Source: Candidatus Latescibacterota bacterium
GTDB lineage: Bacteria > Latescibacterota > CBDEFO01
Length of the DNA: 64,000 nt
Direction: 5' to 3'
NCBI GenBank assembly: GCA_965248755.1
Contig: OZ252149.1
Span: 4,192,001 to 4,256,000 of the forward strand
Below the pieces are notes generated by a model that saw only the letters and a list, made by a program, of their open reading frames with translations, did not search any database and had not been told where the DNA came from. Made by a program: the position numbers and the translations under genes. Position 1 is the first letter of the stretch. Every line of letters starts with the position of its first letter. Below are positions 13,204 through 49,938 of this stretch, piece by piece.

Positions 13204-14661
13204 ATGTCAGATTCTGGCAGACAGGGCTCGTATCAGCAGTATGAAGTGGTCGTAGAGAGGAACGTAATGGTGCCGATGAGGGACGGTGTGAAATTGGCGG
13301 CGGACATCTATTTTCCCGCGCTGGAGGGCAGTCCTGCGAAGGGGAGATTCCCGGCCATTTTGGAGCGGAGTCCGTACGGCAAACAGATAAGGCTGGATAT
13401 GGTCAAAAGCGGCAACTACTTCGCCCGAAGGGGTTATGTGGTCGCCTTCCAGGATGTCAGAGGGAGATTCGACTCTGAGGGCGTATGGTATGCCTTTGCA
13501 AATGAGGCGCCAGATGGGTACGACGCAGTCGAGTGGATAGCGCAACAGAAGTGGTGCGATGGGCAGGTGGGGACTATGGGTCTTTCCTACAGCGGAAGCG
13601 ATCAAAGCGCTCTGGCTACTATGAATCCGCCTCATCTAAAGTGCATGTTCGTAAGCGAGGGGGCATCTAACTATCACACCTGTTCTATGAGGCACAACGG
13701 GGCGTGCGAACTCAGGTTCTTCGTCTATGCCTTTCGCATGGCCTTATCAAGCAAGGAGGCCTTGAAAGACCCTGCTAAAAGGACAGCTGCTGAGGAGGCC
13801 TACAGGAACGTAGGACAGTGGCTGACCAGACTCCCGCACGGGAAGGAAACTTCACCTTTGAGTCTCTTCCCAACTTATGAGCAGTGGATACTGGACATCA
13901 TGACCACAGGGGACTATTATAAGTACTGGAAACAGAGGGGATACAGCATCGAGGAATACTACGACGAACACGCCGATGTGCCTGCGTATTACTTAGGGGG
14001 GTGGTACGACTCTTACACGAGAGCCACGACGGACAATTACGTGCGGCTGTCCACTATGAAAAAGGAGCCGATAAGACTGATTATGGGTCCCTGGTCGCAC
14101 GGCGCGCAGACTTTGGAATTGTCCCGCTACGGTGATGTGGAGTTCGGCGCAGATGCCGCTCTGGACTACAACGATTTCAGGTTAAGGTGGTTCGACTACA
14201 ATCTCAAGGGATTGGATACGGGGATTATGGACGATCCACCGGTCAAAATATTCGTTATGGGAGGAGGTGACGGTAGGCAGACTATAGACGGAGGGCTGAA
14301 TCACGGCGGAAGATGGAGGTTTGAGAACGAATGGCCTCTGGAAAGGACTATATATACTAAGTATTACATCCATCTGGACGGACGCCTCTCTACCGGTGTC
14401 CAGGATGACGATCCTCCAAGCAGCTACACTTTCGATCCGCGCGATCCTGTTCCGACTATCGGGGGCAATATATCAGCCGCAGATGATGTGATACCGGCAG
14501 GGGCCTTCGATCAGAGGGGAAGGGGAGATTTCTTCGGGTGCAGGGATAGTATGCCCCTTTCGGCAAGGAACGATGTATTGGTATTCCAAACTGATGTCTT
14601 GGAGAAGAAAGTTGTGTACTGCCTCCCTGGAAAGCGACATCAATTACGCAAGCTGGGGTAG
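13204..14661 (+). pseudogene. CocE/NonD family hydrolase, C-terminally truncated
   Basis: VPMRDGVKLAADIY, GLSYSG nucleophile motif, GGWYD, MGPWSH, YTFDPRDPVPTIGG; family-like sequence stops after DVLVFQTDVLE (~14610), part-way through the C-terminal domain. Confidence 0.8.
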
Positions 14662-14819
14662 CAGATAAAACTGTTCCTCTAGTCTTCTCGGGTCTTATAT
14701 CCCAAGGACGAATGGAAACGCTTTCTGTTGTCGTCATCGATCCTTTGGGATATCCCTGTGGTCCGCCTTGTCCTCTGGCATTACTTCTTTGAACTTGTCG
14801 AACCGATTGACCTTGATTC

Positions 14820-14983
14820 TTCTACTAACTTCTACTAGATTTCTACTGAACGAGCGGGAATACTATAAAATAACACTAAACAAGAATAAAGTCAATAGCC
14901 CTTATCGAAATACAGCACAACCAGTTAGGGAAACACACTAAACCGAAAGGAAAACCCATATCTGACTACAAGTCAGATGCTCT
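14820..14983 (+). mobile_element. Orphan integrase attachment-site remnant (arm repeats plus core resembling the tRNA-Thr(TGT) anticodon arm)
   Basis: Three TTCTACT direct repeats, then ~114 nt later TCTGACTACAAGTCAGATGCTCT (reverse complement AGAGCA-TCTGA-CTTGTAG-TCAGA); same layout at 44166-44325. Confidence 0.55.
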
Positions 14984-15822
14984 TGAAGGACTTGAAGTGA
15001 AGTCTTTGCACAGACATTTGAGGTAGAAGAGATAATTGGAAAAGCAGAGAAATTTAAGCAGAGAGCTGTTGATTTGTACAAAGTTTTTGATTCAGCAAGA
15101 CGGAGTGTCTTGTTTGAATATTTCTTTTTCTTTCTTTTTATTCTTTGCCGGATCTGATGATATCAAGCAGATATTAAATTTTGATAAATAAAAAATTCTA
15201 AAAATTCACTCAAGCTGACTTTTGGGAAGAGACACGAAAAGCATTTAAGGAACTCGGTTGTCACAAGCTAACCATAAAAGTCTTTCGGGCAATTGTGTGG
15301 ATTTGTGGCTATCGTCTAAAAGGGCCTGAACCGCGTAGCGGTTGGGAAAAGTTTGATCCAAGCTTATTTTGCGTTTAAGTCCATTGGTGTAGGATCTCTG
15401 ATGTACCTTGGTTATGAATTCATCATGAGTAATATACCAGCCTATAGGCTTGGAATCTGTATCGATAACTCTGATCCACAACTCAACAACTGGGTCTCTT
15501 ACCTGAAGCAAATTAACTCCCTTACGACTTAAAAGTTTGACGCCAATGACTTCATTGCCTAAACGGATAAAGCCGCTACCTTCGGCCCGATATTGGAGAT
15601 ATTCAATGGCAGTTAGGTCAGGTAGTGAAATGATGGATGGATACCTTTCCCCACAGTAGCTTGCACCGACGGCTTTACCAATCCAGTCCGATCCCAGTAG
15701 TCTCTTTGGGGGATGGGTGCACCCGGAACGTTAGACAGCAATGTTTAGTAAATACTGGTACTTGCACTAACTCTAGAAGCCCCGTTGCGATCTATAATTT
15801 TCAGTGTGTAGATAGCATTATG

Positions 15823-16551
15823 TTAAGACTCGACCTCCTCTAATTCCTGCTCCACATATTCGAGGTAGATCTTCCCTAGATCCATCCCTTCGAACGCATC
15901 TCTTGTGAATATCTTCGAGAGGTTGCCCTTGTTCATTATGCCCACTCTGTCGGCTATTTCTCTTGCACGAAATATATCGTGGGTCGTCATCCATATCGCC
16001 TTGTCCTCTCCTCTTAGTTCGTCCAGAAGTTTGAGAAACTCCGCGCCGCTTTTCGGATCCAGTCCACTCGTGGGCTCATCTAAGAGGATCACCTGTGCAT
16101 CCTTCATAATCGCTATGGCTATCCCCAACTTCTGCCGCATCCCCTTTGAGAACCCGTCCAATCTCTTTGAAAAGCAATCCGAATCTAGGCCTACGCGAGC
16201 CATCACTGCATCGTAATCGTCACCTTTAGCGTCTTTTCTCCCGCCAAGTTTGGTGAAGAAATCCAGATTCTGCCTCGCCGTAAAGTTTCCGTACAGCATG
16301 ACGTTTTCCGAGACATACGCCACATGCTTCTTCGCCTCCAAAGGATCTTTAGTAATATCTATTCCGCATATTTCGATCGTGCCCTCCGTGGGCTCGGTGA
16401 ATCCCAACGCCACCATCAAGGTCGTGGTCTTTCCGGCGCCGTTTGCCCCCAACATGCCGAATACCTTGCCTCTGTTCACGGTCATACTCAGCTTATTGAC
16501 CGCCAAAGTTCCATCCTCATACCTCTTGGACATATTGATTACGTTAAGCAT
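15823..16551 (-). CDS. ABC transporter ATP-binding protein
   Basis: Walker A GANGAGKTT, signature FSKGMRQK, Walker B ILLDEPTSGLD, H-switch TTHD. Confidence 0.96.
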   Translation of the reverse strand: MLNVINMSKRYEDGTLAVNKLSMTVNRGKVFGMLGANGAGKTTTLMVALGFTEPTEGTIEICGIDITKDPLEAKKHVAYVSENVMLYGNFTARQNLDFFTKLGGRKDAKGDDYDAVMARVGLDSDCFSKRLDGFSKGMRQKLGIAIAIMKDAQVILLDEPTSGLDPKSGAEFLKLLDELRGEDKAIWMTTHDIFRAREIADRVGIMNKGNLSKIFTRDAFEGMDLGKIYLEYVEQELEEVES

Positions 16552-16622
16552 TGCATACTCCCTTTCTTCAGGTCAATTCAGCAGGATCGTAAATAAGCTC
16601 CATTTCGACTATGAAGAATAGA

Positions 16623-18026
16623 TCAATCGAAGACCAGGAGTCCTAATCTCTGTGGTCTCTGATACAACCCTCCAGCCTCCGGGATCCACTCGCAGTACTC
16701 GGAATCCTCTATCCTAACTCTGACCAGGTTGATTCTCCACACAGTACCTTTTCCTACCTTTGCGCCCTCTAAGTCCTCAAACGGAATCCCAAGCTCCAAT
16801 GTCCAGAACTTTTCTTCTATTTTAGTCGCTAGATCGTAGTTCCCGTTCCACGAGGTATCTAGGAGGTTAGCGCTTGGTTCCCGATATGCGTCCCATATAG
16901 TCCCTATGGCGTTTATGATAATGTGGTGGTACGTCCTCTTGTCACGATTTATGTCCAGATGGACCTGAATGCAATCGTCCTCCCAGGTCTTGTTTTCTCT
17001 TTCTTTATACTTTAGGGTGAGATATTCTGTGGAATCCTCGTAGCCCTTGAAAGCTATATATAACTTATCGTGCGTGTATCCAATGAACGCCTCAGTTTTG
17101 CCATCGGTGGGAACAGACGACACCTTGGTTATAAGCTTATAAAAGTCCGTCACACGCTCAGCCTCCTTCCAGCAGGCATCGCCTATGTCTCCATCTACGA
17201 TTGGAGGAACAGAAAGTCTCCGTGCGTACGCCAGCATGCCGTGTTCCCTCAAGATATCCATCCCCTTCTGTTCATCTTCGTTGTCGATGTAGAACATACC
17301 CAGGACCCAATTTGCGTTCTTGCTGTTCGGCACGAGCTCCAAGGCCTCTCTATACTTCTGTTCCGCACCCGCAAGATCTGCCCCTAAAGAAAGTTTATTT
17401 CCTTCGTCTATGATCTGCTGAGCTATACGTTCTACGAATTCTACCGCCTCATGTCTTACTCTCTCGTCCTTATCTTTTGAAAGCTCCTTAGTCGCTTCTG
17501 TAAGGCGTTGTCTCTGCTCATCCGTCATATGCTCGCCCCCAACAATTACCCTGTTTTTGATTTCCCATCCTCCTTGGCTCCTGAGCGCCAGAAGAGCCTG
17601 ATACCTCACCTCACTTTCTTCATCGGTCAGCCTGTCCATCAAAACGTCCGTAGCCTCTTCGGTCTTGAGACGTCCAAACGCCTTGACGATTCCCTCCCTT
17701 ATCTTAGGATCCTCGTCATCCACGTGCATTAGAAGAGTTTTCTCTATCCTCGGATCGTGTTCCCTGAAGGACAACCTGTAGAGAATCTCGACAACATCCG
17801 ACCTTATATTGGGAGGCGTATTTTCATCAGAAAGCGCCTCGATGAGAGGAGGAATTGCATAATTCTTCGACAGCACAAGCCTCAACATCGCCTCGTCGCG
17901 CTCTTCCTTGCTGCCTCCGAGTCTCTTAATCTCCCCTTTCGGATCCGATCCACAGCCCAGAAAAGCTGTCAAAAGGACGAACGACAAGAGAAAGAGGATT
18001 GAAGTCAGTCTCCTTATATCTACCAT
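16623..18026 (-). CDS. Lipoprotein: HEAT repeats + TPR + CBM9/DOMON-like C-terminal domain
   Basis: Lipobox FLG-C; HEAT repeats (LIEALSDE, LMDRLTDEESEVRYQALLAL); TPR (YREALELVPNS); PPIVDGDIGDACW...WEDDCIQV...WTLELGIPF...WRINLVR. Confidence 0.8.
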   Translation of the reverse strand: MVDIRRLTSILFLLSFVLLTAFLGCGSDPKGEIKRLGGSKEERDEAMLRLVLSKNYAIPPLIEALSDENTPPNIRSDVVEILYRLSFREHDPRIEKTLLMHVDDEDPKIREGIVKAFGRLKTEEATDVLMDRLTDEESEVRYQALLALRSQGGWEIKNRVIVGGEHMTDEQRQRLTEATKELSKDKDERVRHEAVEFVERIAQQIIDEGNKLSLGADLAGAEQKYREALELVPNSKNANWVLGMFYIDNEDEQKGMDILREHGMLAYARRLSVPPIVDGDIGDACWKEAERVTDFYKLITKVSSVPTDGKTEAFIGYTHDKLYIAFKGYEDSTEYLTLKYKERENKTWEDDCIQVHLDINRDKRTYHHIIINAIGTIWDAYREPSANLLDTSWNGNYDLATKIEEKFWTLELGIPFEDLEGAKVGKGTVWRINLVRVRIEDSEYCEWIPEAGGLYQRPQRLGLLVFD

Positions 18027-18052
18027 CTAATATCACCTCTTTTTGTCATCTT

Positions 18053-19432
18053 TTAGTTTAGGTCGGCCCTGATGAACGACAGATAGGCCGCTACAAAGAA
18101 GACTAGGTTCCACAGCATCAAAAGAAGGAGATTCATTCCCGTCTCTCTCAATCTATCGGAAAGTAAGCTGTATTCGTAGCGGAATTGCGGATAATCGGTG
18201 ACGTCGAACACCTCCGTGTTCCGGTCTGTCTCTCTTAACTGTGCCTGCTTTTCGTAGGAATAGTTGACCAATTTCTCTCTATAGCGCGAAACGACTTTCA
18301 AGAACCTATCTCTTTCCTTTATGCCTGTTCCCGATATATCGGTGGCAGAATAGATAAAGGGAGCAAGGGGTGATGCCCGCGAGAGATTCTTGGCGAGTCT
18401 GATCTGCTTGTCCAGATCTCTTCTGAAGTAATCGTTCAGCTTCTGTTGCTCCTCCCTGACGGCCTTTCTCCCCTCTCTTCGGAGGTTTGAAAAGAATGTT
18501 CCGGCCTCCTTACTCCACTGCTCCTTGGCGACTTGGGTCCAGTATTTTACCGACTTTTCCTGCATTTCTTTATTCTTCTCCCTCTCCATCTGCCTCTTTT
18601 GCCCTTCGAGCACCTGCACAGACTCCACAGAGCTGATCTGATTGGCGATGTAGGGCATCACGTTGGGAACTATGAGAATGGCCACGATCCATATCAAAAG
18701 AAGAACTGTTATCGAGGAAGACGCTGTCTCCGTCCTGGTCGATACGAAAAGTCCCAGGGAATATATCGCAGATATGTATAAGAGCGATACGAGCATTATG
18801 GTCAAGAGATTGAGCCAGTTGCCTTCCAACTTTACGTCGGGAAAGAACATAACTATCAAAGTCCCGCACAGAAGCGACAGGACAAAGGGAGCAACCAGCG
18901 CTAAGTATCCCCCGAACCACTTGCCTAAAATAACGGTGTGTCTCGGAATATCATACGACATAAGCAGCTTCAACGTCCCGGATTCCTTCTCTCCTGAGAT
19001 TGCATCGTAGCTGAAGGCTACTGCCAAAAGACTCATAATCACGCCTATGAAGAAGGTTAGGTCTATGGCTGGAAAGAAGGGGATTATGGGATTTTCCTCA
19101 TATTCGGCTTCGAACTGAGGATCTAAGAAGGCCGTGACCCTCACCGTCGCACCATTATTCTTCTCTATGCCCTTGAAGAATACCTTCATACTGTTCAGAG
19201 GCTTATCTATCTTCGTTCCTCTCCACAAAAGCTGTCCGGGCAGCTCGACGCTCAGAATCTCTTCTCTGTGCATAAATATGTTGGTGTTGTAGTCGACTAT
19301 GGCCTCCTTGTAGTCCTTCGTCAAAACGAAGACACTGGACATTATAACCACAAAGCATATTATGCAGGACATGGTGAACCGAAGGCTTAAGATGTGATCC
19401 AAAAGCTCCTTTTTGACTAACAGAAAGAACAT
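18053..19432 (-). CDS. ABC-2 type permease with large periplasmic helical loops
   Basis: LVKKELLDHILSLRF, YDAISGEKESGTLKLLMS, ILGKWFG; about 6 TMs. Confidence 0.92.
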   Translation of the reverse strand: MFFLLVKKELLDHILSLRFTMSCIICFVVIMSSVFVLTKDYKEAIVDYNTNIFMHREEILSVELPGQLLWRGTKIDKPLNSMKVFFKGIEKNNGATVRVTAFLDPQFEAEYEENPIIPFFPAIDLTFFIGVIMSLLAVAFSYDAISGEKESGTLKLLMSYDIPRHTVILGKWFGGYLALVAPFVLSLLCGTLIVMFFPDVKLEGNWLNLLTIMLVSLLYISAIYSLGLFVSTRTETASSSITVLLLIWIVAILIVPNVMPYIANQISSVESVQVLEGQKRQMEREKNKEMQEKSVKYWTQVAKEQWSKEAGTFFSNLRREGRKAVREEQQKLNDYFRRDLDKQIRLAKNLSRASPLAPFIYSATDISGTGIKERDRFLKVVSRYREKLVNYSYEKQAQLRETDRNTEVFDVTDYPQFRYEYSLLSDRLRETGMNLLLLMLWNLVFFVAAYLSFIRADLN

Positions 19433-19470
19433 AGTTGATCTCCTTTTTAACCCCGACCGGGGAGGTGATC

Positions 19471-20937
19471 CTAGGTTACGTCGTATCTCATAAAGAAGAG
19501 GTAAGATCCTGTAAAAAATACTATGACAAACATAAACATCAAAATTACGTCTATCAGGACGAAATCTATGCTCTCGTTAAGATTAGCGTCGATCAGCCTT
19601 AATCTTGGGAGTTCCTCAGGACGGAGCCAGTCATCTTCCAATTTTCGGCTTCGCATTTTCTCCCATATCAGTTTCTGGTAGTCTTCAAAATCGTTCTCAA
19701 AGCGCCTGTACGCCTTTTTGAATCCGTCGTACTGATTTATTCCTGTCTGGGCCAGCTCCGAAGAGGCGTATTTGAAACTCGCAGAGGGAGAAAGGCGCGA
19801 AAGGACTTTGGCTATTGATATCTGCGTTCCTAGTTCCTTTTCAAAGAAGTCGTCCAGCTCCCGGTGGCGCCTCGTCTTCTCCTCTTCGAGCTCATCCAAG
19901 AGCTTCTTGTGGCGCCCCAGGTGCTTAAATCCGACCAGGTTCTCCCCGATTTCTCTCTTTCTTACAGTCATTTCCTGGTCTATGGCGGCCTTCTCCCCTT
20001 CTATCTTCTGAAGCGTCGGCACAGGAGAGGCTATTCTGGCGATAACGGGCGAGAGATTTGGAATCACTAAAATCCAGATCACCCACACAAAGAGCGAGAC
20101 CAATAGCGCCGTAGCTGATCTGTGCGTAACAGTGGATATAAATATCCCCAGTCCACAGAAGAGCAAAATGTAAAGCATGGAGACGAACAAGAGCAGCGCT
20201 ATCCTGAAAAGTTCTTCTGTGCCTAAGGGAACGACGGCCGAAATGTATACATATGCGAGTCCTGCAGATATAGCTATAATAAACGGGACAATAAGAGTCA
20301 GATATGCACCTGCCCACTTAGCCAGTATCAGGGCGTCTCTTGCGACCGAATTGGAAAGGACAAGCCTCAGAGTTCCTCGCTCCTTCTCCCCACAGATCGT
20401 ATCGAAGACGAAGATCAAAGCCAGAAGGCTTAAGACGATGTTGACGATGTACGAAAAATCAGGGGTGGCGACGAGCAGGAAGAGTGGATTTTTGAAGAGC
20501 TCTTCGTTTACCTTTCTCGTATGCCCGCGTGAGACGTGCACCTGAGAAGGCATACTCTCTTCTAGTCCCTTGGACAGAAAGCTCAAGACCCTCGGGGGCC
20601 TCGGCGAGTATATGCCTCTGCTTCCCAAAAGCTCTCGGACCTTCTCCCCAGGATCTTCGATGGCATCTATCTCGTTTATGGCATCTCTGTTTGCCGCTTC
20701 ATTTGAGTTATATTTTTCCTTATTTATTCTGTAATCGTTGGTAAGTATGTAGATACTCAGGAGTATCCCTCCGAAGAAAAGAGCGAACGTCACGGCAAAT
20801 CTGGCGGTGAGTATGTTGGAGAGTATCTCCTTCTTTAAAAGAGTGGCAAAGGAGACGCTGGAGCGATCCTTTTCAAGTGCTTTCTTTCCTCCCTGGACTG
20901 CATCTGCGTCTGGCACTTCTTTCGTAACATCGTCCAT
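19471..20937 (-). CDS. ABC-2 type permease (paralog)
   Basis: LLKKEILSNILTARF, FDTICGEKERGTLRLVLS, ILAKWAG; GGAGG RBS before ATG 20937. Confidence 0.92.
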   Translation of the reverse strand: MDDVTKEVPDADAVQGGKKALEKDRSSVSFATLLKKEILSNILTARFAVTFALFFGGILLSIYILTNDYRINKEKYNSNEAANRDAINEIDAIEDPGEKVRELLGSRGIYSPRPPRVLSFLSKGLEESMPSQVHVSRGHTRKVNEELFKNPLFLLVATPDFSYIVNIVLSLLALIFVFDTICGEKERGTLRLVLSNSVARDALILAKWAGAYLTLIVPFIIAISAGLAYVYISAVVPLGTEELFRIALLLFVSMLYILLFCGLGIFISTVTHRSATALLVSLFVWVIWILVIPNLSPVIARIASPVPTLQKIEGEKAAIDQEMTVRKREIGENLVGFKHLGRHKKLLDELEEEKTRRHRELDDFFEKELGTQISIAKVLSRLSPSASFKYASSELAQTGINQYDGFKKAYRRFENDFEDYQKLIWEKMRSRKLEDDWLRPEELPRLRLIDANLNESIDFVLIDVILMFMFVIVFFTGSYLFFMRYDVT

Positions 20938-20982
20938 TCTTGGCCTCCATCGCAATTATAAGCCGCCCTTACCAGAACGGGG

Positions 20983-22383
20983 TCAATCGAAGACGATAAG
21001 TCCGAACCCTTGAGGTCTCCCTAATCGAGTCCGTGCCCATTCCCCGTACTCGGCAACCTCAACTCTCATTCTGGCTACGTTAAATCCCCACATAGTGTCT
21101 CTTTCCACCTTGGCGTTTCCCAGGTCCACAAAGGGAATCCCGATCTCTAAAGTCCAAAACTTATCCTCTATCTTAGTCACCAAATCGTAGTTCCCGTTCC
21201 ACGAGGTATCTATCTCACGGTTACGCCGGTGGGCGTCCCATATCGTTCCTATGGCGTTCACGATAATGTGATAGTACGACCTCCTGTCCCAATTTGTATC
21301 GAAACATATCTCAGCGCAATCGTCCTCCTAGACCCTCCCTTTATCTCTGTCCTTATACTTTAAAACGAGATTCTTCATAGATTCCTCGTAGCCTCTAACT
21401 CCTATGTATATCTTATCGTCTGTATATCCGACAAATGCCTCAGATTTGCCCTTTACAGGAACTGCTGCCAGCCGGGTGACATTATAAAACTCCGTAAGAT
21501 GCTGTGCATCCTTCCAGCATGGGTCTGTTAAATACCCATCTATAATAGGTGGAGAAGAAAACCTTTTGGCGTAAGTCAGCAAACCGTGCTTCCTCAATAT
21601 CTCCAGTCCTTTCTCCTTATCTCCGTTGTCTATGTAGAACATAGCTAACACATGATTTACGTTCTTGCTGTTCGGCGCAAGCTCTAGCGCCTCGTGATAT
21701 TTCTGCTCTGCACCTTCCAGATCAGCATTCAGAGCCGACTTGTCCCCTTCCTGTGTAATCTGAGAAGCTATACGCTCTACGAACTCGACCGCTTCAACGC
21801 TAATTCTCTCGTCATTATCTTTTGCAAGCACCTTAGTCATATCTGAAAGACGCTTCCGTTGCTGCTCCGTCATATACTCGCCTCCCTCTACCCTCTGCCG
21901 CACATCCCATTCTCTCACCCTATCGAGTGCTAATAGAGCCTGATATTTCACCTGGCTATCTTTATCGTTCAATCTGTCCATTAAAACATCAGTCGCCTCT
22001 TCCGCCTTCATATACCCGAACGCCCGAACGATCGCCTTCCTTACTTCTGAATCCTTATCGTCTGCATGCTGCAACAGGGCAGGCAGGATCCTTAGGTCGT
22101 GCTCTCTTAAGGCCAACCTGTATAGCACCTCAACAACAGCTCTCCTTACATTAGGAGGCATTTTCTCATTTGAAAGTGCCTCGATGAGCGGGGGGATGGA
22201 GTAACTCTTCGACAGGACGAGCCTCAGCATCGCCTTGTCTTGCTCTTCTTTGTTTCCTCCAAGCTTCTTTATGTCTGCCTTGGGATCCGATCCGCATCCT
22301 TGAAGAGTCACGATTGCCACAGATAAAGAAAGGACAAACAACAAAAGGTAAAAGATGTAAGATAGTCCCTTCACATTTAGCAC
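20983..22383 (-). pseudogene. Second HEAT-TPR-CBM9-like lipoprotein with in-frame TAG at 21328-21330
   Basis: Paralog of 16623..18026 (GCGSDPK lipobox); KGRV*EDDCAEI aligns with NKTWEDDCIQV, i.e. TGG>TAG; the frame continues to ...GLIVFD. Confidence 0.85.
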
Positions 22384-22389
22384 CTGACA

Positions 22390-24033
22390 TCACCTCCTAT
22401 TTGACCTTATAGTGGTTACGACAACGACCATTATCACTCCGATGACGGCCAAAACCAAAAGCGTATTTTTCAGTATATTCGCCTTCTCACTGACTCTGAT
22501 AGTAACGTCCTTTTCGTCCGATTCGACTTTGATGTTTCCCACTGTGCCGAGGGCTTCCAATCGGATCTCATATTCTCCAATGACCAAATCCTCAGGCGGA
22601 GTAATAGTTATATTTACCGGCTCCTTTTTCCCCGCCTTCACCTCCGCTATCATCGCAGGGATGGCCTCAACCTCCCATCCCAAAGGGGCGCTCACGTCAG
22701 TCGTTACACCGAAGACGGCCAAGGTCCCCGTATTGTGGATGTCTATCCTCACCGACACCACTTCTCCTACCTTAATCTCCTGATACCTGTCGGTTGTCAC
22801 GACCTCCATAGCCCCTTCGCCTCTCGGTAATAGTTCCAGTTTAACCTTACTCGCCTTCACGGTGTTTATCTGGGTCTCAGGGATAATGGTGTCCTTATAT
22901 TTTGCCCTGAGTTTGCTTAATTCTTCAAACCCCTCTCTATCAGTCACCAAAACGAAGAACTCCAGCGTAGAGTCGATGTACTCCCTGCTCAACTTCTCAG
23001 GTATCGATATCTCCAGATACAGTTGAATCTTGGTCGTCGATTCCGTGAATTTCACCTGACTCAGACTCGCCTTGGTGCCCTGATCGACAAATGAGTAGTC
23101 TATCTCCATAGGAATATTCAAAAGAGCCAGCCTGAAGGTCTTTTCCTCCTCCGAGAGCCTCTCGAGGATTATGTCAAAGTTCACTATTGAGTTAAGATTC
23201 CCCTCTTGAGAGAACTGTGCCGAGTTTATCATAGGCAAGTCCTCCAGTGCCTCTTTTTTCAGCACCACGGGGATAGTCTTCTCTGTCTCCAAGTATTTCA
23301 TCTTTATCCCAAGCTCCTCCACGTCCATAAGCAGTCGAAAGGTCAGGGTCTTTTCCTCTTTGAGTTTCAGAAACGGCAATATGACCTCGTACGGCTCGGC
23401 TATGATAAGACCAGAGGCAGACGCTCTCGAAGTGGCTTTTTTCTTCTGAGCTTTTTTCCGCGAACTTTCCTCGTCCTCTTGTTCTTCTTCGGGCCTTTTC
23501 GGTTTTTCCTCTTTCTTCGTCGTCCCTGTGCCCCCCGAGGTCAAAGAAATCATTATGTTCTGTATCTCTAGGAGCGAGACGACCTGGTCACGCGAAAGGT
23601 CTTTATTCAGATTCATAGCCTGGGCGATGTGAGACGAGTTGCCCAGAGTTATGTCTACCATCCTTCTGCCATCAGGCGTCCTGTACTTTCTGGCCTCCTT
23701 CACGGAGATATGCATCACACCTGCCAAAAACTCAAGTTTCTGCCTCTCAAGACCGATCTTCTGCTGCTTATACGCCAGTTGGGCGCTTTTGTACTTCCTC
23801 TCCTCTTGGTTTCTATCCTGAAGCGTTATGAGGCCCTCTTCAAAGAGCTGTTGCGCTCCCTCTGCCTCTCTCTTTGTTCTAGCCATCCGTATTTTAGTCC
23901 TCTCAAGCCCTAGTTCTGCCTCCCTGAGCTTGATCTCTTGCAGCCTCTCTTCCTTAGTCTGGGCATCTGCTTGTAGTGTGCATAAGAGCGACTGAATGAT
24001 CAATAGTATAGATATCAAATGTAAAGAGAACAT
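22390..24033 (-). CDS. Exported protein: helical hairpin + Ig-like/NEW3 (NPCBM-associated) domain + C-terminal TM anchor
   Basis: Signal peptide (..ADA-Q); hairpin AQQLFEEGLITLQ; HNTGTLAVFGV..SAPLGWEV..ITPPEDLVIGEYEI; hydrophobic C-terminus + RSNRR; alternative start 24045. Confidence 0.75.
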   Translation of the reverse strand: MFSLHLISILLIIQSLLCTLQADAQTKEERLQEIKLREAELGLERTKIRMARTKREAEGAQQLFEEGLITLQDRNQEERKYKSAQLAYKQQKIGLERQKLEFLAGVMHISVKEARKYRTPDGRRMVDITLGNSSHIAQAMNLNKDLSRDQVVSLLEIQNIMISLTSGGTGTTKKEEKPKRPEEEQEDEESSRKKAQKKKATSRASASGLIIAEPYEVILPFLKLKEEKTLTFRLLMDVEELGIKMKYLETEKTIPVVLKKEALEDLPMINSAQFSQEGNLNSIVNFDIILERLSEEEKTFRLALLNIPMEIDYSFVDQGTKASLSQVKFTESTTKIQLYLEISIPEKLSREYIDSTLEFFVLVTDREGFEELSKLRAKYKDTIIPETQINTVKASKVKLELLPRGEGAMEVVTTDRYQEIKVGEVVSVRIDIHNTGTLAVFGVTTDVSAPLGWEVEAIPAMIAEVKAGKKEPVNITITPPEDLVIGEYEIRLEALGTVGNIKVESDEKDVTIRVSEKANILKNTLLVLAVIGVIMVVVVTTIRSNRR

Positions 24034-24064
24034 GGATTCTCCCATCTTGGATGTGCTCTGGTTG

Positions 24065-25591
24065 CTATCTTCTGCTGACCCTGCGTATAGCCACGACCAT
24101 CCCGACGAGCATCAGAATCAACACGCCCACGAGAGTCAGACTGCCTGCGAGGCTCGCCTCTGAGCCGACCCTTATCGTGATGTTCTTCTTCACCGATTCA
24201 ACTTTCACGTTTCCCACCTCTCCCTGGGCTTCGACTCCTACAGTATAATCGCCCACTCCTATGTCAGGCGGCGGAAGGATTTTGAGCGTGACGGGTATTT
24301 TATCGTCGGGATCGATGATCTTTATCAGGTCTGGCTCAATCTCATAGTACCACTCATAGGGCAGATCGGGGGCCAGTTTCACGTTGCCGACTCCGAGCGT
24401 CCCTCTGTTGTGGATCTCCACCTTCAAGGAGAGCTCGGTCTGGTCGGTACCTATCTCTTGATAGCGGTTTGAGATGACGACGACAAGCTCCCCAACGCCT
24501 CTGGGGATCAGCTCCAATTTTACTTTATCCCCCTTCAGCCTTTCTATCTGTTCTTCGGGGATCGTATCCTCTCCATATTTGTCCTTGAGCTCGTTTATCT
24601 TCGCCAGCTCCGAAGTCTGAGTCACCAGGACGTAGAAGGTCGAAGTTTTGTCTATCAGATCCCTGTCCAGATTCTCATGTATCGCCAGCACAAGGTTCAG
24701 GATGATCTTGGACGTCTGCTCGGTGAACCTGACCTGCGAAAGGCTCGCCCTTGTTTCAGGATCGAAGAAAGAATGTTCGATCTGACGGGGAAGGTTCAGA
24801 ACCACCAGTCTGAAGCTCTTCTCATCCTCAGAGAGTCTCTCAAGTACTATTCCATAGCTAATTCTGGAATCTATCTCCCCTTCCTGTGAAAACTGGCTCG
24901 AGCTTATGGTGGGAACGTCGTCCAAAGACCCTTTCTTCAGCACCACAGAGTAGATCCTTTCGGATTCCAAGAAGCTCATCACCACGTCGAGTTGATCGGA
25001 ATCTTTCAGGAGTCTGAAGGTAATCTTCTTCTTTTCGTGTAAGGCTATCGTCGGAATGATGACCTCATACGGCTCCCCCGCGATGGCCCCGTCTCTGATC
25101 GAGACGATCACGTTTTGAATTCCCAGAAGGTCGTCTAATTTGTCCTCTCCAAGAACCTCGGCCCAGTCGGCGTTGGATGTGTTCTTAAGGACTATATCGA
25201 CCATCCTCTTACCACCTTTTAGGCTCTTGTACTTGTTCGCCTCGACTATGGTGATGTTGGAGACATCCTGCAAGAGATCCAGCTCGGTCCTTTCGAGGTC
25301 AATCTGGCTCTGCTTGTAGTCGAGCTCGGCCTTTTCATAGCCCTTTCGAATCTTGTTGAACTCCTGAAGTGTCAGGACATCCTCTCTGTAGAGTCTCTGT
25401 GCGTTTTCGAATTCTACCATATAGCTCTCCAGGGCCTCCTTCGCATGCTCCAGGCCGAGTCTGGCGTCCTGGATCTTAAGGAGACTCAGCTTTTTTTCCT
25501 TCGTCATCGCCTCCTCGGCAGAGACGGCCCAGGGAAGCAAAGAAACCAGGACAGACAGAATCAAAAAGAGTGTTGACAAATCTCTTATCAT
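24065..25591 (-). CDS. Exported protein: helical hairpin + Ig-like/NEW3 domain + C-terminal TM anchor (paralog)
   Basis: Signal peptide (..VSA-E); AQRLYREDVLTLQEF hairpin; HNRGTLGVGNV..LPYEWYY..PPPDIGVGDYTV; TM + RRVSRR; start overlaps the upstream stop (ATGA). Confidence 0.75.
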   Translation of the reverse strand: MIRDLSTLFLILSVLVSLLPWAVSAEEAMTKEKKLSLLKIQDARLGLEHAKEALESYMVEFENAQRLYREDVLTLQEFNKIRKGYEKAELDYKQSQIDLERTELDLLQDVSNITIVEANKYKSLKGGKRMVDIVLKNTSNADWAEVLGEDKLDDLLGIQNVIVSIRDGAIAGEPYEVIIPTIALHEKKKITFRLLKDSDQLDVVMSFLESERIYSVVLKKGSLDDVPTISSSQFSQEGEIDSRISYGIVLERLSEDEKSFRLVVLNLPRQIEHSFFDPETRASLSQVRFTEQTSKIILNLVLAIHENLDRDLIDKTSTFYVLVTQTSELAKINELKDKYGEDTIPEEQIERLKGDKVKLELIPRGVGELVVVISNRYQEIGTDQTELSLKVEIHNRGTLGVGNVKLAPDLPYEWYYEIEPDLIKIIDPDDKIPVTLKILPPPDIGVGDYTVGVEAQGEVGNVKVESVKKNITIRVGSEASLAGSLTLVGVLILMLVGMVVAIRRVSRR

Positions 25592-26955
25592 TCGAAAAGC
25601 CCCATTATGAGCCTCAGGTCCTCCCGAGCATTGATATACCTGTCTTGGTCTGCGAAGAATCTGTCCTGTGCCTGGAAGAACTGGAGCCTGAATCTCTCCA
25701 CTTCGTCGTCCTTGGCCTTTCCTTCATCTTTGTATCTCTTGAATATCTCGAATCGTCTCTTGGCGATCTCGGCCCTCCTCTCCTGAATGTCCCTTTTAGT
25801 CCGGACCTCGAGGAGCGATTGATAGGCGCTTCTTGTGGCCAACTCGACCTTCTCGTTCTCGTTTGAGAATATCGCCTCGGCCTGTCTTAACCTCTCCCTT
25901 TGACGCTTCAGTTCACCGTATCTTGAGAGTCCCTCAAAGATAGGTATGTCCAATTGAAGATTGGCAAAGATGTCTCTTTCATTCCCTTTGAGCACAAACG
26001 AAGGGCTGTCGTCTTCTCTTTTGACAGCTACTTTTCCTTGGGCGTCAACGCTCCACGTATCGCCTTTGTTAGACAGATCAAAAAAGACCTTCTTACCGTC
26101 CTTCTCGATTCCGGACTGGAAGGTCAGATCTGGCATGAACTCCCACGCGACTTCCCTGGATACCCTCTTGGCCTCCCAGCGTCTTTCTTTGGCTAAGGCC
26201 ACCGGGACGCTGTTTTTCAGGGCTATCTGAACGGCCTCCTCCTCGTTTATCTGAAAGTCCAATAGCTCGCCTCTGATCTGACTTTCTATGTTTCCTATTG
26301 GGCGTCCCAAGAGCTTCAGAAGCTTCAGCTTACTCCTGAACTGATCCCTCTGGAGTGAGTTTATCCTGTCCTTTTCAGTCAGGACGTCAAGCTCCGCCGC
26401 CAGGATATCCAAAGGATCGGCCATCCTGAGCTCCTCTTTCTTCTTGGTCCTCTCCCATAGCTTCTGAAAGTCTTCGAGAAGGCCCTGCCTTATCTTTATC
26501 TGTTCTTCTCTCAGAAGGACGGTGAAGAAGGATCGTCTCACCTCAGAGAGGACGCGCCTCACGTCAGATTCGTAGCCGTATATGGCTACTCTTCGATCCT
26601 CCCTGAAATTGACGTCCAGCGGGGAGTCCTTTCCGAACTCCAAGAACCTCTGACTCGCCACAAGTGAGGTCTCGTGTAAGTCGTCCTCTATCCTTCCCGG
26701 ATCTTTTCTAGAGTAATCAAATAGCGTTAGAAAAGAAACATGGGGGAGAAATCTGGATCTGACGATTATTCGGTCTCCGCCTGTCTCTTCCACTCTCCTT
26801 ATGGCCTTTATGATATCTTTGTTGTCTTTCATCGCGAGTGATATGCATTCTTTGAGTGTAAGTTCCGAAGTGTCCTTCGCCCATATCTCTGCGACGTAAA
26901 CCAAACCGAACAGGACCGCAAAAGAGAACAAAGCTAACTTAGATCCAAGGTTCAT
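25588..26955 (-). CDS. TolC-family outer membrane efflux protein
   Basis: Signal peptide; LTLKECISLAMKDN; RFLPHVSF; EVRRSFFTVL; LQLDIPIFEG; ATRSAYQSL; YINAREDLRLIMG (two OEP-like repeats). Confidence 0.85.
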   Translation of the reverse strand: MNLGSKLALFSFAVLFGLVYVAEIWAKDTSELTLKECISLAMKDNKDIIKAIRRVEETGGDRIIVRSRFLPHVSFLTLFDYSRKDPGRIEDDLHETSLVASQRFLEFGKDSPLDVNFREDRRVAIYGYESDVRRVLSEVRRSFFTVLLREEQIKIRQGLLEDFQKLWERTKKKEELRMADPLDILAAELDVLTEKDRINSLQRDQFRSKLKLLKLLGRPIGNIESQIRGELLDFQINEEEAVQIALKNSVPVALAKERRWEAKRVSREVAWEFMPDLTFQSGIEKDGKKVFFDLSNKGDTWSVDAQGKVAVKREDDSPSFVLKGNERDIFANLQLDIPIFEGLSRYGELKRQRERLRQAEAIFSNENEKVELATRSAYQSLLEVRTKRDIQERRAEIAKRRFEIFKRYKDEGKAKDDEVERFRLQFFQAQDRFFADQDRYINAREDLRLIMGLFE

Positions 26956-27022
26956 AAGATCCCTCCTATACCATATGGGATGCGCGTAGGTTGAACTTCA
27001 CGTGGAATTATCTGATACTTTG

Positions 27023-27460
27023 TCAAATTAGGTCAGTCCTTATGAACGACAGTTAGGCCGCCACAAAGAAGACTAGGTTCCACAGGATCAGAATGAGGAG
27101 GTTCAGTCCTGTCTGCCTCAATCTGTCGGAAAGTTCGCTCCATTCGTAGTGGAATTTCGGATAATCGCTGATGTCGAATGTCCCTCTGTCCCAGTCGGTC
27201 TCCGCCTGCTTGCTGCTTGTCTAAAAGTATCCTAATCTTTACCCCTCGCTCCAAAGCCCTGAGCAATGCGTCGGCAATAGGCTCTGAAGTAAAGCTATAC
27301 ATAGCCACATCAATCTATTTTCCGACTTGTCTATCTCTTGGATAACCTTTTCCGTGCAACCACCATTGGGGCTGAAGAACACCTCCTGACCATAAACAGA
27401 TACATTGATAAATAAAAAGGCTATCACGATTGTAACACTGGTTAGCCTCCTCTTGTCCAT
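27023..27460 (-). pseudogene. Chimeric remnant: PLD/Nuc-like nuclease 5' part fused to the 3' end of an ABC-2 permease paralog
   Basis: EVFFSPNGGCTEKVIQEIDKS / frameshift / AMYSFTSEPIADALLRALERGVKIRILLD; 27023-~27200 is homologous to 18053-~18230 (FDISDYPKF..LWNLVFFVAA*LSFIR). Confidence 0.8.
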
Positions 27461-27676
27461 CGCTTGTCCCTCCTTTTAAAGGGATCCCACAAGAATTGGC
27501 TATGAGTTACAAGAACAGTTGGACCGCTATAGACTGTCCTCAGAAATGATACGACAACGCCTGTACAGGGGGGCATATCACTGTAGAATCGATTCTTTTA
27601 ACACTGATGGCATATTCCCCACTGGAATATTTGAAGCGATTTCTGGGCTATTAAACGACGATTCTACCGACGGACT

Positions 27677-30392
27677 CTATTTCACTAATACTAGCTTCCT
27701 TGTCTTCACAAATCCATCTGTTTCCATCCGATACAGATAGACTCCGCTGGCAAGGCTCTTTTGATTGTCATCTTTGCCGTCCCAGACTACCAAGTAGCTA
27801 CCATCTGATCTGTGACCATCCACCAGTGTCGCTAACTTCTGCCCCATGAGATTGAACACAGATAGCTTAACGTGGCCTCCAACAGGATGATCGAAACGGA
27901 TCACTGTCTGGGGGTTAAACGGATTGGGAAAGTTCTGCTCCAGGGTAAATCCTTGTGGGCGTCCGGCGATGTGCTCTTCCAGCACGGCGGTGATCGCTCT
28001 AGCGGTGACCAGGCGTATATCATCGAGAAAGAAGGTACCTTCCAGATTCCCAAAAAAACCGATACCCTCGATCGGCTCGGTCAGTTCAAGCGCTTCCAGA
28101 CCAATCTCCACCTCCTGCCAGTCCTTCAGATCCAGATCCACTATATCTTCTTCCAGTAACTCCACGATATTGGGAGTACCTGCACTACGAAAGTCCACAT
28201 TAAAAAGCGCTTCTCCTTCAGAAGGTCGGATCGCATCTCCTGGATGAAAGGAAAAACTTAGAGATTTATAAGACAGAGGATCTACAGGATCGGCCAGCAG
28301 ATATATAAAAGCAAAACCTTCTCCCGGCGGGCCCCCGACCGGTGAAGGCCCGCTCTCCACTGCCAGGGCAAACTGTCCCTGGTGGACTACGGTATCTTCC
28401 TGGAAGTCCAGCTTCCCCTGGAAGGCTTGCACCTGCCCAATGTCCGCCAGTGCATCTGCGAAGATTACCAGATCCTCGGTCGGCAACCCGACCGGTACGC
28501 GGATGCCCTTAGACAAATTCGTCCAATAGGGTCCCAGCAAAGTGGCCTGTTCAATCAGGATCGATACAATCTTTAAGCCAGTGAGATCTCCCACCGCAAG
28601 GATCACCGGTTCCAGCCGGTAGGTGCCATCCCCCCTGTTCATAAGAGGCACCGCCTCAGGTCCACCGAGACCGCTCAGATCCGCTGTGACCCGGGTGATC
28701 TGGGCCCCCGCTTCAAAGAGGGCCGGCCGTACCGTGGCGATTAAATCGATTGTCTCGCCAACAAGCACGGAATCGGGGAAATTGTTTTCCCAGACCGCGG
28801 GGTGGACAACGTGGTAGTCCTCCCGTCCCTCGAAGACGCGGATCTTCTGATCCGCCGGAACATCGCTCAAAACATCCACCACCCCAGAAGGCCAGTGGAT
28901 CTCCAGTTGATCTACCTGGGTGTGCGCTCCCAGACCGAAATGCACTACTATCTCCTCCTGGGTGAAGCCGTTGCCCCCGAAGATATCCCGCGTCTGTTGC
29001 AGATTTCCAGATGTGGCCACCAGCCGCGCGCCGATGCCGTTGCGATTGCTCTGAATGCCCACCAACTCCACCCGCAGATAGTGGTTGTCGTTGCCGTTGT
29101 TGCGGTACAACGCCGGATCGGAGGAGGTGAATTCTCCTGGGACACCGCTGCCCGATACCCACACATCCAGGAAGCCATCTCCGTCGAAGTCAGCGAACGA
29201 GAAAAAGCCCGCTGAGTTTATTCCCAACCGGCTTGTCTGCTCCACGAAGGTCCCATCCCCGTTGTTTTCAAAGAGCCGAATGAAGGGAGCCCCGATCAGC
29301 AGATCCAGCTCCCCATCGTTATCGATATCCACCAGGGTGGCTATCGCATTTTCCGACAGATATGTGGGCGGCACTTCATACAATATGGATAATCCCGCTT
29401 CATTGGCAACGTTTGCGAAACGGCCCTCTCCCAGGTTTGAGAACAAAAAAGAGGGAGACGGTGTAGTACCGCCAGCCACGCCGCCGCCGCCGGCCTGGAA
29501 AATATCCAGATCCCCGTCGTTGTCGATGTCCCCCACGGTCACCCCGAAGACTTTGCCAGAATCCTCGATCGCCGGCGTGGTAGCATCCCGGAACCCGCCT
29601 TGACCATCGCTCAGAAAGAGGCGGTTGGGCGCATTCCAGACGCCTAAGTAGAGATCTGGCCAGCCGTCGTTGTCGAAATCACCGGCCCCTATCCCGTGGA
29701 CGCTCCCCCCCCCCGGTTGGGTGTAACTGCAGATCCAGGCCAGCTTGCTCGGTCACGTCTGTGAAGGTGCCATCCCCATTGTTGCGGTGGAGTTTGTTGC
29801 GGAGCTCCGGATCGTCCTCCGAACCACCAATTGAGCTCGGCAGAAACCAGTGTCCCACGTAGAGGTCCAGGTGCCCATCCCGGTTATAGTCCAGCCAGAT
29901 GGCGTTGTCCGTGGGCAGGATATCCACCAGGCCTGCCTCCTGGGTTACGCCCCGGAACACTCCTTGGTTGTTGCGCAGAAGCGCATCCTGTCTGCGCTCG
30001 AATACATGTCCGACTGGCAGGTAAAGATCCAGATCGCCGTCGTTATCGTAGTCCCCGAAGACCGATCCTCCGCCTTTCAGTCCTGAGGGTATATCTGCTC
30101 GTATGGCAGCAGTTCGATCCGTAAACCGGCCATTGCCCTCGTTGTACAGCAGCCTTAACCCAGCCCCCCCAAACGCCGCGATAAACAGGTCAGATCGGCC
30201 ATCGTTATTGTAATCTCCAAAGGCAATACTCCCGGCGTCGGGCCGCACACCCGGCAGCGGCCTTCCGATAATTCCTTCGGTCACATCCGTAAAGAAAGTC
30301 TGTGCAGCAATCGGGTCAGCCAAAAGAATGCTAAAGCAGAAGAGAGCATTCCACAATATAAATAACCCCAAGCGAGCTGGTGTACCAATCAT
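27677..30392 (-). pseudogene. FG-GAP repeat / ASPIC-UnbV (CRTAC1-like) secreted protein with FlgD-Ig/T9SS-like CTD; frameshift at poly-C ~29705-29714
   Basis: Signal peptide; GDYNNDGRSDLF, GDYDNDGDLDLY, GDIDNDGDLDIF; SNRNGIGAR..HFGLG..IHWPSG; LEQNFPNPFNPQT..SGVYLYRM. The shift lies in a homopolymer and may be a sequencing error. Confidence 0.8.
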
Positions 30393-49576: not shown

Positions 49577-49897
49577 GTTGGGGCGAGGTTCTCTCGGCTA
49601 ATGGTTGGGTAGCCCAGCCTTTACACGATAGGTGATACGGAGAAGAGAAGGTGCCCTGCCTACGAGATTGCTTCCCCCCGATAGATTCAATCGGGGGTCG
49701 CTCGCAATGACACGGTGTACTTTTGCCTTCGATCATTGAGAGGGGTGGAACCTCGACTCCGTCAGGAGTTACGACCCCGAGGAGACGCGAAGCGGAAGCA
49801 GAACCAAGCTCAAAGACTTTTTTCTAATGAAAAGTAATCAGTAGGGGCGAGCCCATGTGTTCACCCAGTGGGTAGGGGACACATCCTTCTCCCTATT
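49577..49897. repeat. Cluster of REP-like palindromes
   Basis: Degenerate copy of the 2373 element (49577-49625); GAGATTGCTTC[hairpin]GTCGCTCGCAATGAC (49664-49712); GTAGGGGCGAGCCC.. (49841-). Confidence 0.65.
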
Positions 49898-49938
49898 TGC
49901 TAACAGAACAGACTCCTCCCCATAACAGGAGTATAGAG

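Follow-up and report, generated by a model that had tools for sequence, protein, structure and literature searches.

Several described transporters combine an ATP-binding cassette (ABC) motor with an adaptor and TolC. In MacAB-TolC the motor, MacB, is of type VII and the adaptor is canonical, and in Escherichia coli YbhGFSR and YhiI-RbbA-YhhJ also contain an ABC motor, a canonical adaptor and TolC, the YbhFSR type having ABC-2 permease pairs. We know of no dispersed multi-permease repertoire for any of these three systems. Canonical periplasmic adaptor proteins (PAPs), such as AcrA, MexA, MacA, HlyD and EmrA, consist of membrane-proximal, beta-barrel, lipoyl and hairpin domains and have an N-terminal anchor, as set out in the accessible part of a review (PMC13328181). 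Here we analyzed a window of 64,000 nucleotides from a Candidatus Latescibacterota bacterium (contig OZ252149.1, positions 4,192,001 to 4,256,000), in which a TolC gene stands beside genes for two paralogous proteins with a helical hairpin and a NEW3 domain, here termed HA and HB, and beside genes for a NosY-type ABC transporter. We are fairly confident that HA and HB act as adaptors, and we consider it likely, with less assurance, that they join the neighbouring TolC and the ABC transporter into an export pump that spans the envelope. This reading is built on domain content, hairpin homology, gene linkage, co-occurrence and gene fusions, from which we infer the steps of the mechanism.

The minus strand carries all eight genes of the locus in the order TolC, HA, HB, lipoprotein A, permease A, permease B, lipoprotein B and ATPase, with intergenic gaps of -4, 19, 6, 27, 38, 26 and 71 bp, the TolC and HA genes overlapping by 4 bp. 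A preliminary description had listed eight co-oriented, close genes in this order; the order, strand and gaps were borne out, but lipoprotein A was found to be interrupted by an in-frame TAG. It had also proposed that everything between TolC and the ATPase forms paralog pairs, which agrees with identities of 42% (HA/HB), 59-60% (lipoproteins) and 31% (permeases). Pfam models matched OEP in TolC, NEW3 in HA and HB, HEAT in both lipoproteins (TPR remaining below the cut-off), CBM9_1 in lipoprotein B, ABC2_membrane_2 and DUF3526 in each permease and ABC_tran in the ATPase.

HA was modelled with AlphaFold2 (AF2) from a 79-row alignment, with a predicted local distance difference test (pLDDT) score of 92.7 and a predicted template modelling (pTM) score of 0.62, the latter indicating that the domain arrangement is loose. 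The model contained a leader helix, a helical hairpin (residues 31-110), three beta-sandwiches (113-217, 228-364 and 369-476) and a C-terminal helix (481-507); the C terminus has a transmembrane (TM) helix followed by an SRR tail. The third sandwich corresponds to Pfam NEW3 and matched a sialidase immunoglobulin-like (Ig) domain with Z 11.4. Judged by eye and by hydropathy, the N-terminal hydrophobic segment of HA resembles a signal peptide. In HB, the first Ig domain contains an inserted low-complexity segment. A Foldseek search with the whole of HA returned generic Ig arrays only (integrins, CEP192 and ciliary proteins). A search of representatives clustered at 50% identity assigned 287 clusters to the HA/HB family at E<=1e-30, and their source names pointed to Latescibacterota, KSB1 and Gemmatimonadota-labelled records. 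In a census of 255 homologs by hidden Markov model (HMM) and hydropathy, 206 had the hairpin, the Ig domains and the C-terminal TM helix, and 237 had a C-terminal TM helix with a basic tail, at least 206 of these 237 ending in RR or KR. The first Ig domain was tripled in three homologs (718-797 amino acids), which indicates that the length of the stalk is variable.

We searched 177,635 PDB sequences with a profile of the 79 rows and obtained 32 matches at E<=10. Twenty of the 32 were PAPs, including all of the best 11 (E 5e-7 to 5e-3), with the TriA-TriB fusion 6vej at the top (5e-7), and every PAP match fell within profile positions 25-108. When the hairpin HMM was run against the 15,445 open reading frames (ORFs) of the same genome, the seven best non-self matches were four PAPs and three TolC-family ORFs (best E 0.007), and a profile of the genome's nine PAPs matched HA at residues 38-104 only. 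RLS is a named motif of the PAP hairpin tip in the available sections of the review (PMC13328181); in the register taken from the TriA/TriB alignment, the tip Leu (Leu67 in HA) was present in 79/79 rows and a Ser or Thr at +7 in 65/79, Thr74 of HA occupying the Ser position. The HA hairpin overlaid AcrA 96-176 with Z 10.6 and a root-mean-square deviation (rmsd) of 1.8 over 81 residues, and also overlaid HlyD (Z 10.6), EmrA, MacA and MexA. The two kinds of hairpin are equal in length and align without gaps or nearly so. From these sequence comparisons we judge the hairpins of HA and HB to be homologous to those of PAPs.

The remainder of HA and HB is unlike a PAP. The lipoyl, beta-barrel and membrane-proximal domains are absent and three predicted Ig-like domains stand in their place; the hairpin is predicted to lie at the mature N terminus and the anchor at the C terminus, whereas PAPs are described as N-anchored in what could be consulted of PMC13328181. 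HA and HB are adaptor-like at the working end, yet outside the PAP (MFP/HlyD) family. The earlier statement that no canonical adaptor is recognizable here is accurate for the surroundings, the nearest HlyD-type gene lying 1.03 Mb from the locus, but the hairpin itself is recognizably adaptor-derived.

The genes of HA and HB, like those of PAPs, lie beside TolC and an inner-membrane transporter. We found 34 named GTDB loci with close alignment, several of which end at contig edges. A same-strand TolC gene was adjacent in 33 of them (31 upstream, 2 downstream), the single miss being at a contig edge; two hairpin genes were present in 31, the ATPase in 23 and permeases in 22. In a second set of 19 loci from 18 same-phylum genomes, which partly overlaps the 34 and is mostly of one lineage, TolC was adjacent in 14, with three misses at contig edges and two real ones (L023 and L028). 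TolC lay upstream of the hairpin genes in some lineages and downstream in others, and at least two TolC lineages were involved. The conserved core is TolC beside one or two hairpin/NEW3 genes. Beyond TolC-HA-HB the gene order varied freely. A lack of conserved order in relatives, which the preliminary description had named as grounds for refutation, thus applies to the order of all eight genes but not to TolC-HA-HB. Each of the seven other full-length TolC genes of the genome had a canonical PAP gene within 5.2 kb, the TolC of this locus being the sole exception. A canonical PAP gene was found within 10 kb in 4 of the 34 loci; in the two of these that were read (L039 and L057) it preceded an AcrB-like gene and stood apart from the permeases, and we therefore did not assign it to the system. 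A sigma-54 response regulator gene adjoins single-hairpin versions of the system at L017:2350-5264, L020:408-1784 and L022:3591-6264, and L017 and L022 also have a GAF histidine kinase gene there; no such regulator adjoins the locus in the window.

TolC is a 12-stranded trimeric barrel with four strands per protomer. The TolC of this locus has a signal peptide and two OEP repeats, and the strand segment of repeat 2 spans 64-68 residues in 10 sampled rows versus 32-56 in the seven other TolCs of the genome. Over 37 rows, the strand pattern of repeat 2, judged from sequence alone, showed four alternating hydrophobic (amphipathic) stretches rather than two. On this pattern a protomer might have six strands, which would give a wider barrel. 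In two other TolCs of the genome the first repeat is of similar length, so a long repeat is not unique to the system. At G000:C1:2763195-2769949, a TolC gene with a long first repeat occurs with three tandem canonical adaptor genes, and this TolC resembles the one used by G006, G011 and G047 for the hairpin/NEW3 system.

A tree of 80 rows, built by a quick search and leaving aside four loci that were duplicates and two that were broken or partial, separated the first hairpin genes from the second, each forming a clade of 32 rows (SH-like approximate likelihood ratio test, SH-aLRT, 96 and 99), with the single-gene loci outside. The order of HA and HB was fixed across the 32 loci, and the sequences of the hairpin tips differed consistently between the clades. 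HA and HB are two old clades. This split parallels TriA and TriB of TriABC-OpmH from Pseudomonas aeruginosa, two different adaptors with separate roles that are 36% identical according to the portion of PMC13328181 at hand, compared with 42% for HA and HB; unlike HA and HB, TriA and TriB are canonical four-domain PAPs on an RND pump.

The motor here is a type V ABC transporter, in contrast to the RND pump of TriABC and the type VII MacB. Permease B was modelled by AF2 with pLDDT 90.7 and pTM 0.87 and contained a long periplasmic helical hairpin (272-351). It superposed on NosY with Z 25.7 and rmsd 2.6 over 254 residues, the next best structure reaching 18.9; NosY was also the best sequence match of the permeases (E 7e-16), and NosF was the best bacterial PDB match of the ATPase, which has GANGAGKT, LLDEP and TH motifs and the variant signature FSKGM. 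Homology of permease A begins near residue 36, and its true start is probably downstream of the annotated one. The permeases are type V (ABC-2, NosY-like) membrane domains with added long periplasmic helices. NosDFY(L) shares the permease fold and a related ATPase, but NosY has about 275 amino acids and lacks the long periplasmic helices, and no TolC or adaptor takes part there. Type I secretion, which combines an HlyB-like type IV ABC transporter with an HlyD adaptor, differs in that here the ATPase is a separate 242-amino-acid protein, the permeases are of type V and no HlyD-type gene lies within 1 Mb. GldA-GldF-GldG likewise contains an ABC-2 ATPase and a permease, with GldG as a membrane-anchored periplasmic partner of GldA-GldF. 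The NCBIfam models of GldA and GldF scored far below their cut-offs here (152 of 402.6 and 25 of 288.5 bits), and that of GldG did not match HA or HB. The Gld ABC transporter, which had been named as a possible explanation of the parts, does not account for them.

The permeases and the hairpin family occurred together. Among 60 relatives, 17 had both, one had the hairpin family only, three had permeases only (61-80% complete) and 39 had neither, a weak hairpin-only match of G020 being scored as negative. Six genomes had at least 26, 20, 18, 11, 10 and 10 permease matches (matches, not copy numbers) versus 1-3 matches of the hairpin family. Around three permease pairs of G054, 20-kb windows contained neither an ATPase or TolC nor a match to the hairpin family or to PAPs. 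In P0237 and L067, which are about 70% identical to each other, a single ORF fuses a permease to a whole hairpin/Ig protein, and L071 carries permease and hairpin genes unfused. On that metagenome contig (L071:171-11115), six tandem permease genes form three alternating pairs and are followed by a hairpin gene and an ATPase gene. A complex prediction of permease A with HA 225-508, run with a single permease of the presumed dimer and without folded controls, scored 0.00 in two runs and was used neither for nor against binding. Hairpin homology, TolC linkage, the two old clades, and permease co-occurrence and fusion support the earlier proposal of a heteromeric ABC-powered conduit with non-canonical adaptors.

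In the export pump that we favour, HA and HB would, after signal cleavage, stand in the inner membrane by their C termini with the hairpin pointing outward, the reverse of the chain direction in canonical adaptors. Three hairpins of HA and three of HB may assemble into a ring and meet the TolC trimer tip to tip, in the manner of TriA and TriB, and the Ig stalk would bridge the remaining periplasm, surrounding the tall periplasmic helices of a permease A/B dimer. ATP hydrolysis would move these helices and thereby drive cargo, probably taken up from the periplasm or the outer leaflet, into the TolC channel. The permease pairs, and in one lineage the HEAT-CBM9 lipoproteins, could be exchangeable specificity parts on one conduit. 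A bulky glycan, a glycoconjugate or a peptide is our tentative guess at the cargo. TolC has been proposed, in the part of the source available (PMC13438883), to take part in beta-glucan export, so the export of a glycan would have a precedent. The preliminary description had suggested glycan or glycoprotein export, for which the sole pointer in the locus is the CBM9-like domain of an accessory gene.

The lipoproteins had been listed among the parts of the system, and their distribution does not support them as core parts. They were present in 5 of the 34 named loci and missing from 29, and full-length HEAT-CBM9 lipoproteins occurred in 4 of the 60 relatives, all of one family and all having the system. 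G059 had 16 lipoprotein matches, 14 of them near-full-length and two with internal stops. In the window, the TAG of lipoprotein A (21330-21328) stands at a Trp of its paralog (V*EDDC versus TWEDDC) and interrupts the CBM9-like domain, with 114 further open codons beyond it, to position 20983. Logan contigs of runs X1 and X2, which represent one sample and possibly the source of the assembly, covered 15578-27749 with 0 differences, indicating that the stop is not an assembly slip. Pyrrolysine read-through was ruled out, as no PylS scored above the cut-off and no tRNA-Pyl was among the 48 ARAGORN genes. The lipoproteins look like lineage-specific accessory parts with fast turnover, and sugar binding by them is suggested by the weak Pfam CBM9_1 match (2.6e-6). 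At L012:16676-18133 and L043:6113-7570, the N terminus of a HEAT-CBM9 lipoprotein, ahead of the lipobox, resembles the start of the neighbouring permease (…IIRKEIVNNILSFRF…), as though the signal peptide had been derived from the start of a permease.

Several observations weigh against the export pump. At least two homologs (P0162 and P0158) lack the hairpin, and only 5 of the 79 rows have the Arg of the RLS motif at the tip. The fold match of the hairpin is unspecific, helices of MORC2 and FCHO2 reaching Z 10.3 versus 10.6 for AcrA and HlyD; since unrelated helical hairpins score equally, the overlay by itself is weak, and the sequence evidence is stronger. Both window rows have long branches in the quick tree. 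L023, on the single contig of G056, has ample flanks and no adjacent TolC, and nothing in G056 matched this TolC subfamily. L028, which is a second copy with a frameshift, also has ample flanks without an adjacent TolC. No TolC was found on the short contigs of the fusion-lineage loci L067, L068 and L071. The co-occurrence is overstated, because the permease profile derives partly from these genomes and the relatives are non-independent kin. NosY, the closest permease of solved structure, works as a mechanical motor rather than as a translocator. The closest ATPases in a plasmid collection (four records, 44-50% identity) were encoded beside a TonB-dependent receptor and two DUF3526 permeases in 3/3 records read, and in one of these the cluster also encodes a Fur-family repressor, FolE and MerC. 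Among cultured bacteria, the nearest ABC cores adjoin TonB-dependent receptors, which suggests uptake.

The same conduit might run in reverse, the ABC core driving uptake, TolC and the Ig-stalk adaptor replacing the TonB-dependent receptor, and the CBM9 lipoproteins binding sugar; we regard this as unlikely, while giving it more weight than the other alternatives. Bacteroidota units of a TonB receptor, two DUF3526 permeases and an ATPase are the nearest ABC core among the cultured organisms searched. Their ATPases are 42-47% identical and their permeases gave E values of 1e-26 to 1e-55 with the profiles, but their outer-membrane partner is the TonB-dependent receptor, and the 10-kb regions read contained no hairpin/NEW3 protein or TolC. 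A similar arrangement, likened here by description and not by family comparison, is that of Caulobacter, in which the Zur-repressed znuGHI (an ABC-2 ATPase and two permeases, ZnuH and ZnuI) lies beside the receptor gene znuK and is called a putative uptake system in the accessible text (PMC4176598). Some type V transporters import, as the available part of another source states (PMC10094684), and the 14 near-full-length lipoprotein matches of G059 versus three permeases give a ratio such as is usual for importers that have many binding proteins. Against uptake, the systems treated in the consulted sections of PMC13328181 use PAP hairpins and TolC for export, and most named loci lack the lipoproteins. 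A proposal that we rate slightly lower still is that a TolC widened to six strands per protomer and a heterohexamer with a length-adjustable Ig stalk form a shared trunk, running inward for oligosaccharide uptake, for up to a dozen permease pairs and families of sugar-binding lipoproteins.

A second alternative, which we consider improbable, is an assembly motor like NosDFY, in which no cargo would pass the inner membrane, the energy of ATP would move partners in the periplasm, and HA/HB-TolC would be a strut or a hand-over path for envelope components. NosY being the clear best match of the permeases in both structure and sequence, with NosF as the best bacterial PDB match of the ATPase, agrees with such a motor, and the motor overlaps with the export pump in the step of periplasmic pick-up. 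However, a strut would not obviously require a full channel protein, and a family-model scan of the eight locus genes found no nosD-, nosL- or nosZ-type partner. Finally, that an ordinary NEW3-protein/ABC-2 unit lies beside an unrelated TolC by chance is very improbable and, as raised in the preliminary description with an unlinked TolC, is largely refuted by the adaptor-type hairpin on a NEW3 protein, the 4-bp overlap with HA and TolC adjacency in 33/34 and 14/19 loci, on either side and in at least two TolC lineages, despite the resemblance of the Ig stalk to NEW3/COG1470-type clusters (scores 0.88-0.92, leads only) and the occurrence of G056 and of hairpin-less forms without an evident TolC.

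The features of the locus and of its upstream flank are given in Table 1.

Table 1. Positions in the window of the genes, domains and remnants of the TolC-HA-HB locus
Feature	Position	Strand	Evidence
TolC-family outer membrane factor, 455 aa	25588..26955	-	Pfam OEP 3e-38; profile matches CmeC, SilC, TolC
HA, 508 aa, proposed inverted adaptor subunit 1	24065..25591	-	AF2 model pLDDT 92.7; Pfam NEW3
PAP-type alpha-hairpin of HA (residues 31-110)	25262..25501	-	PDB profile search; own-genome HMM; AcrA 96-176 superposition
HB, 551 aa, HA paralog, proposed adaptor subunit 2	22390..24045	-	42% identity to HA; separate clade
Lipoprotein A, 351 aa as read, broken by in-frame TAG	20983..22383	-	LQG-C lipobox, HEAT, TPR-like, CBM9-like
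Premature TAG in lipoprotein A	21328..21330	-	Trp in lipoprotein B; same stop in run X1 and X2 contigs
Permease A, type V ABC membrane domain (NosY-like), periplasmic helices of DUF3526	19471..20955	-	Pfam ABC2_membrane_2 8e-32, DUF3526
Permease B, 459 aa, same family as permease A	18053..19432	-	AF2 pLDDT 90.7; NosY Z 25.7
Lipoprotein B, intact, 467 aa, accessory	16623..18026	-	FLG-C lipobox; Pfam HEAT_2, CBM9_1 2.6e-6; TPR-like; distribution
ABC ATPase, 242 aa	15823..16551	-	Walker A, Walker B, H-loop; signature FSKGM
Decayed 3' end of third, permease-B-like gene	27023..27211	-	69% over 64 residues; one internal stop
Frameshifted, truncated PLD-like remnant, outside system	27141..27460	-	Pfam PLDc_2 2.6e-9; abuts permease remnant

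The decayed tail of the third permease gene, joined to the PLD-like remnant, lies just upstream of TolC and indicates that a third permease was formerly in the locus. Scans for promoters and terminators gave numbers near chance (19 vs 11.0+/-3.2 and 14 vs 10.3+/-2.7, respectively). With these queries, the single same-genus genome searched, G001 (96% complete), yielded no HA match, full-length permease or member of this TolC subfamily.

Further features were noted elsewhere in the window. In a higher-GC stretch (27677-30392, minus strand), two ORFs appear to be the parts of a split FG-GAP/ASPIC-UnbV protein whose C-terminal domain is FlgD-Ig, and a CocE/NonD-type S15 peptidase with an apparently truncated C terminus is encoded at 13204-14661 (plus strand), followed by about 1.1 kb without long ORFs (14660-15820), with repeat-like contig variants around 14730-15480. 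The plus strand at 49897-56019 encodes a 2040-amino-acid protein with Y_Y_Y/GbpA-like repeats and Ig/cadherin domains, and the minus strand encodes a DDE_Tnp_1_4 transposase (37993-39390) and a multi-TM protein with a C-terminal TPR array (9513-11849), which had TPR and weak Wzy_C_2 matches in Pfam and presumably resembles TMTC-type glycosyltransferases. At G000:C1:3964534-3974434, four near-identical ORFs of 200 codons are spaced by about 3.1 kb, suggesting a tandem 3.1-kb repeat unit.

In the literature outside subscription journals and supplements, including the accessible portions of PMC8277102, PMC10094684 and PMC10849945, we found no description of an inverted Ig-stalk adaptor system. 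The same search yielded nothing relevant on a NEW3 domain with an ABC transporter and TolC, on non-canonical adaptors or on TolC-ABC export in Latescibacter, no paper on DUF3526 or on NosDFY and NosY, only an unrelated one on COG1470, and, in the paper checked, nothing relevant on an 18-stranded TolC. The present results suggest that the hairpin which docks on TolC is portable, a module that an unrelated Ig stalk can carry, with the anchor at the opposite end and with domain repeats adding length, which makes the minimal requirements for engaging and opening TolC testable. They also offer a first functional frame for the DUF3526 permeases, which accompany a TonB receptor in one group of bacteria but TolC in a second group, and for the large expansion of these permeases in uncultured Latescibacterota-like genomes.

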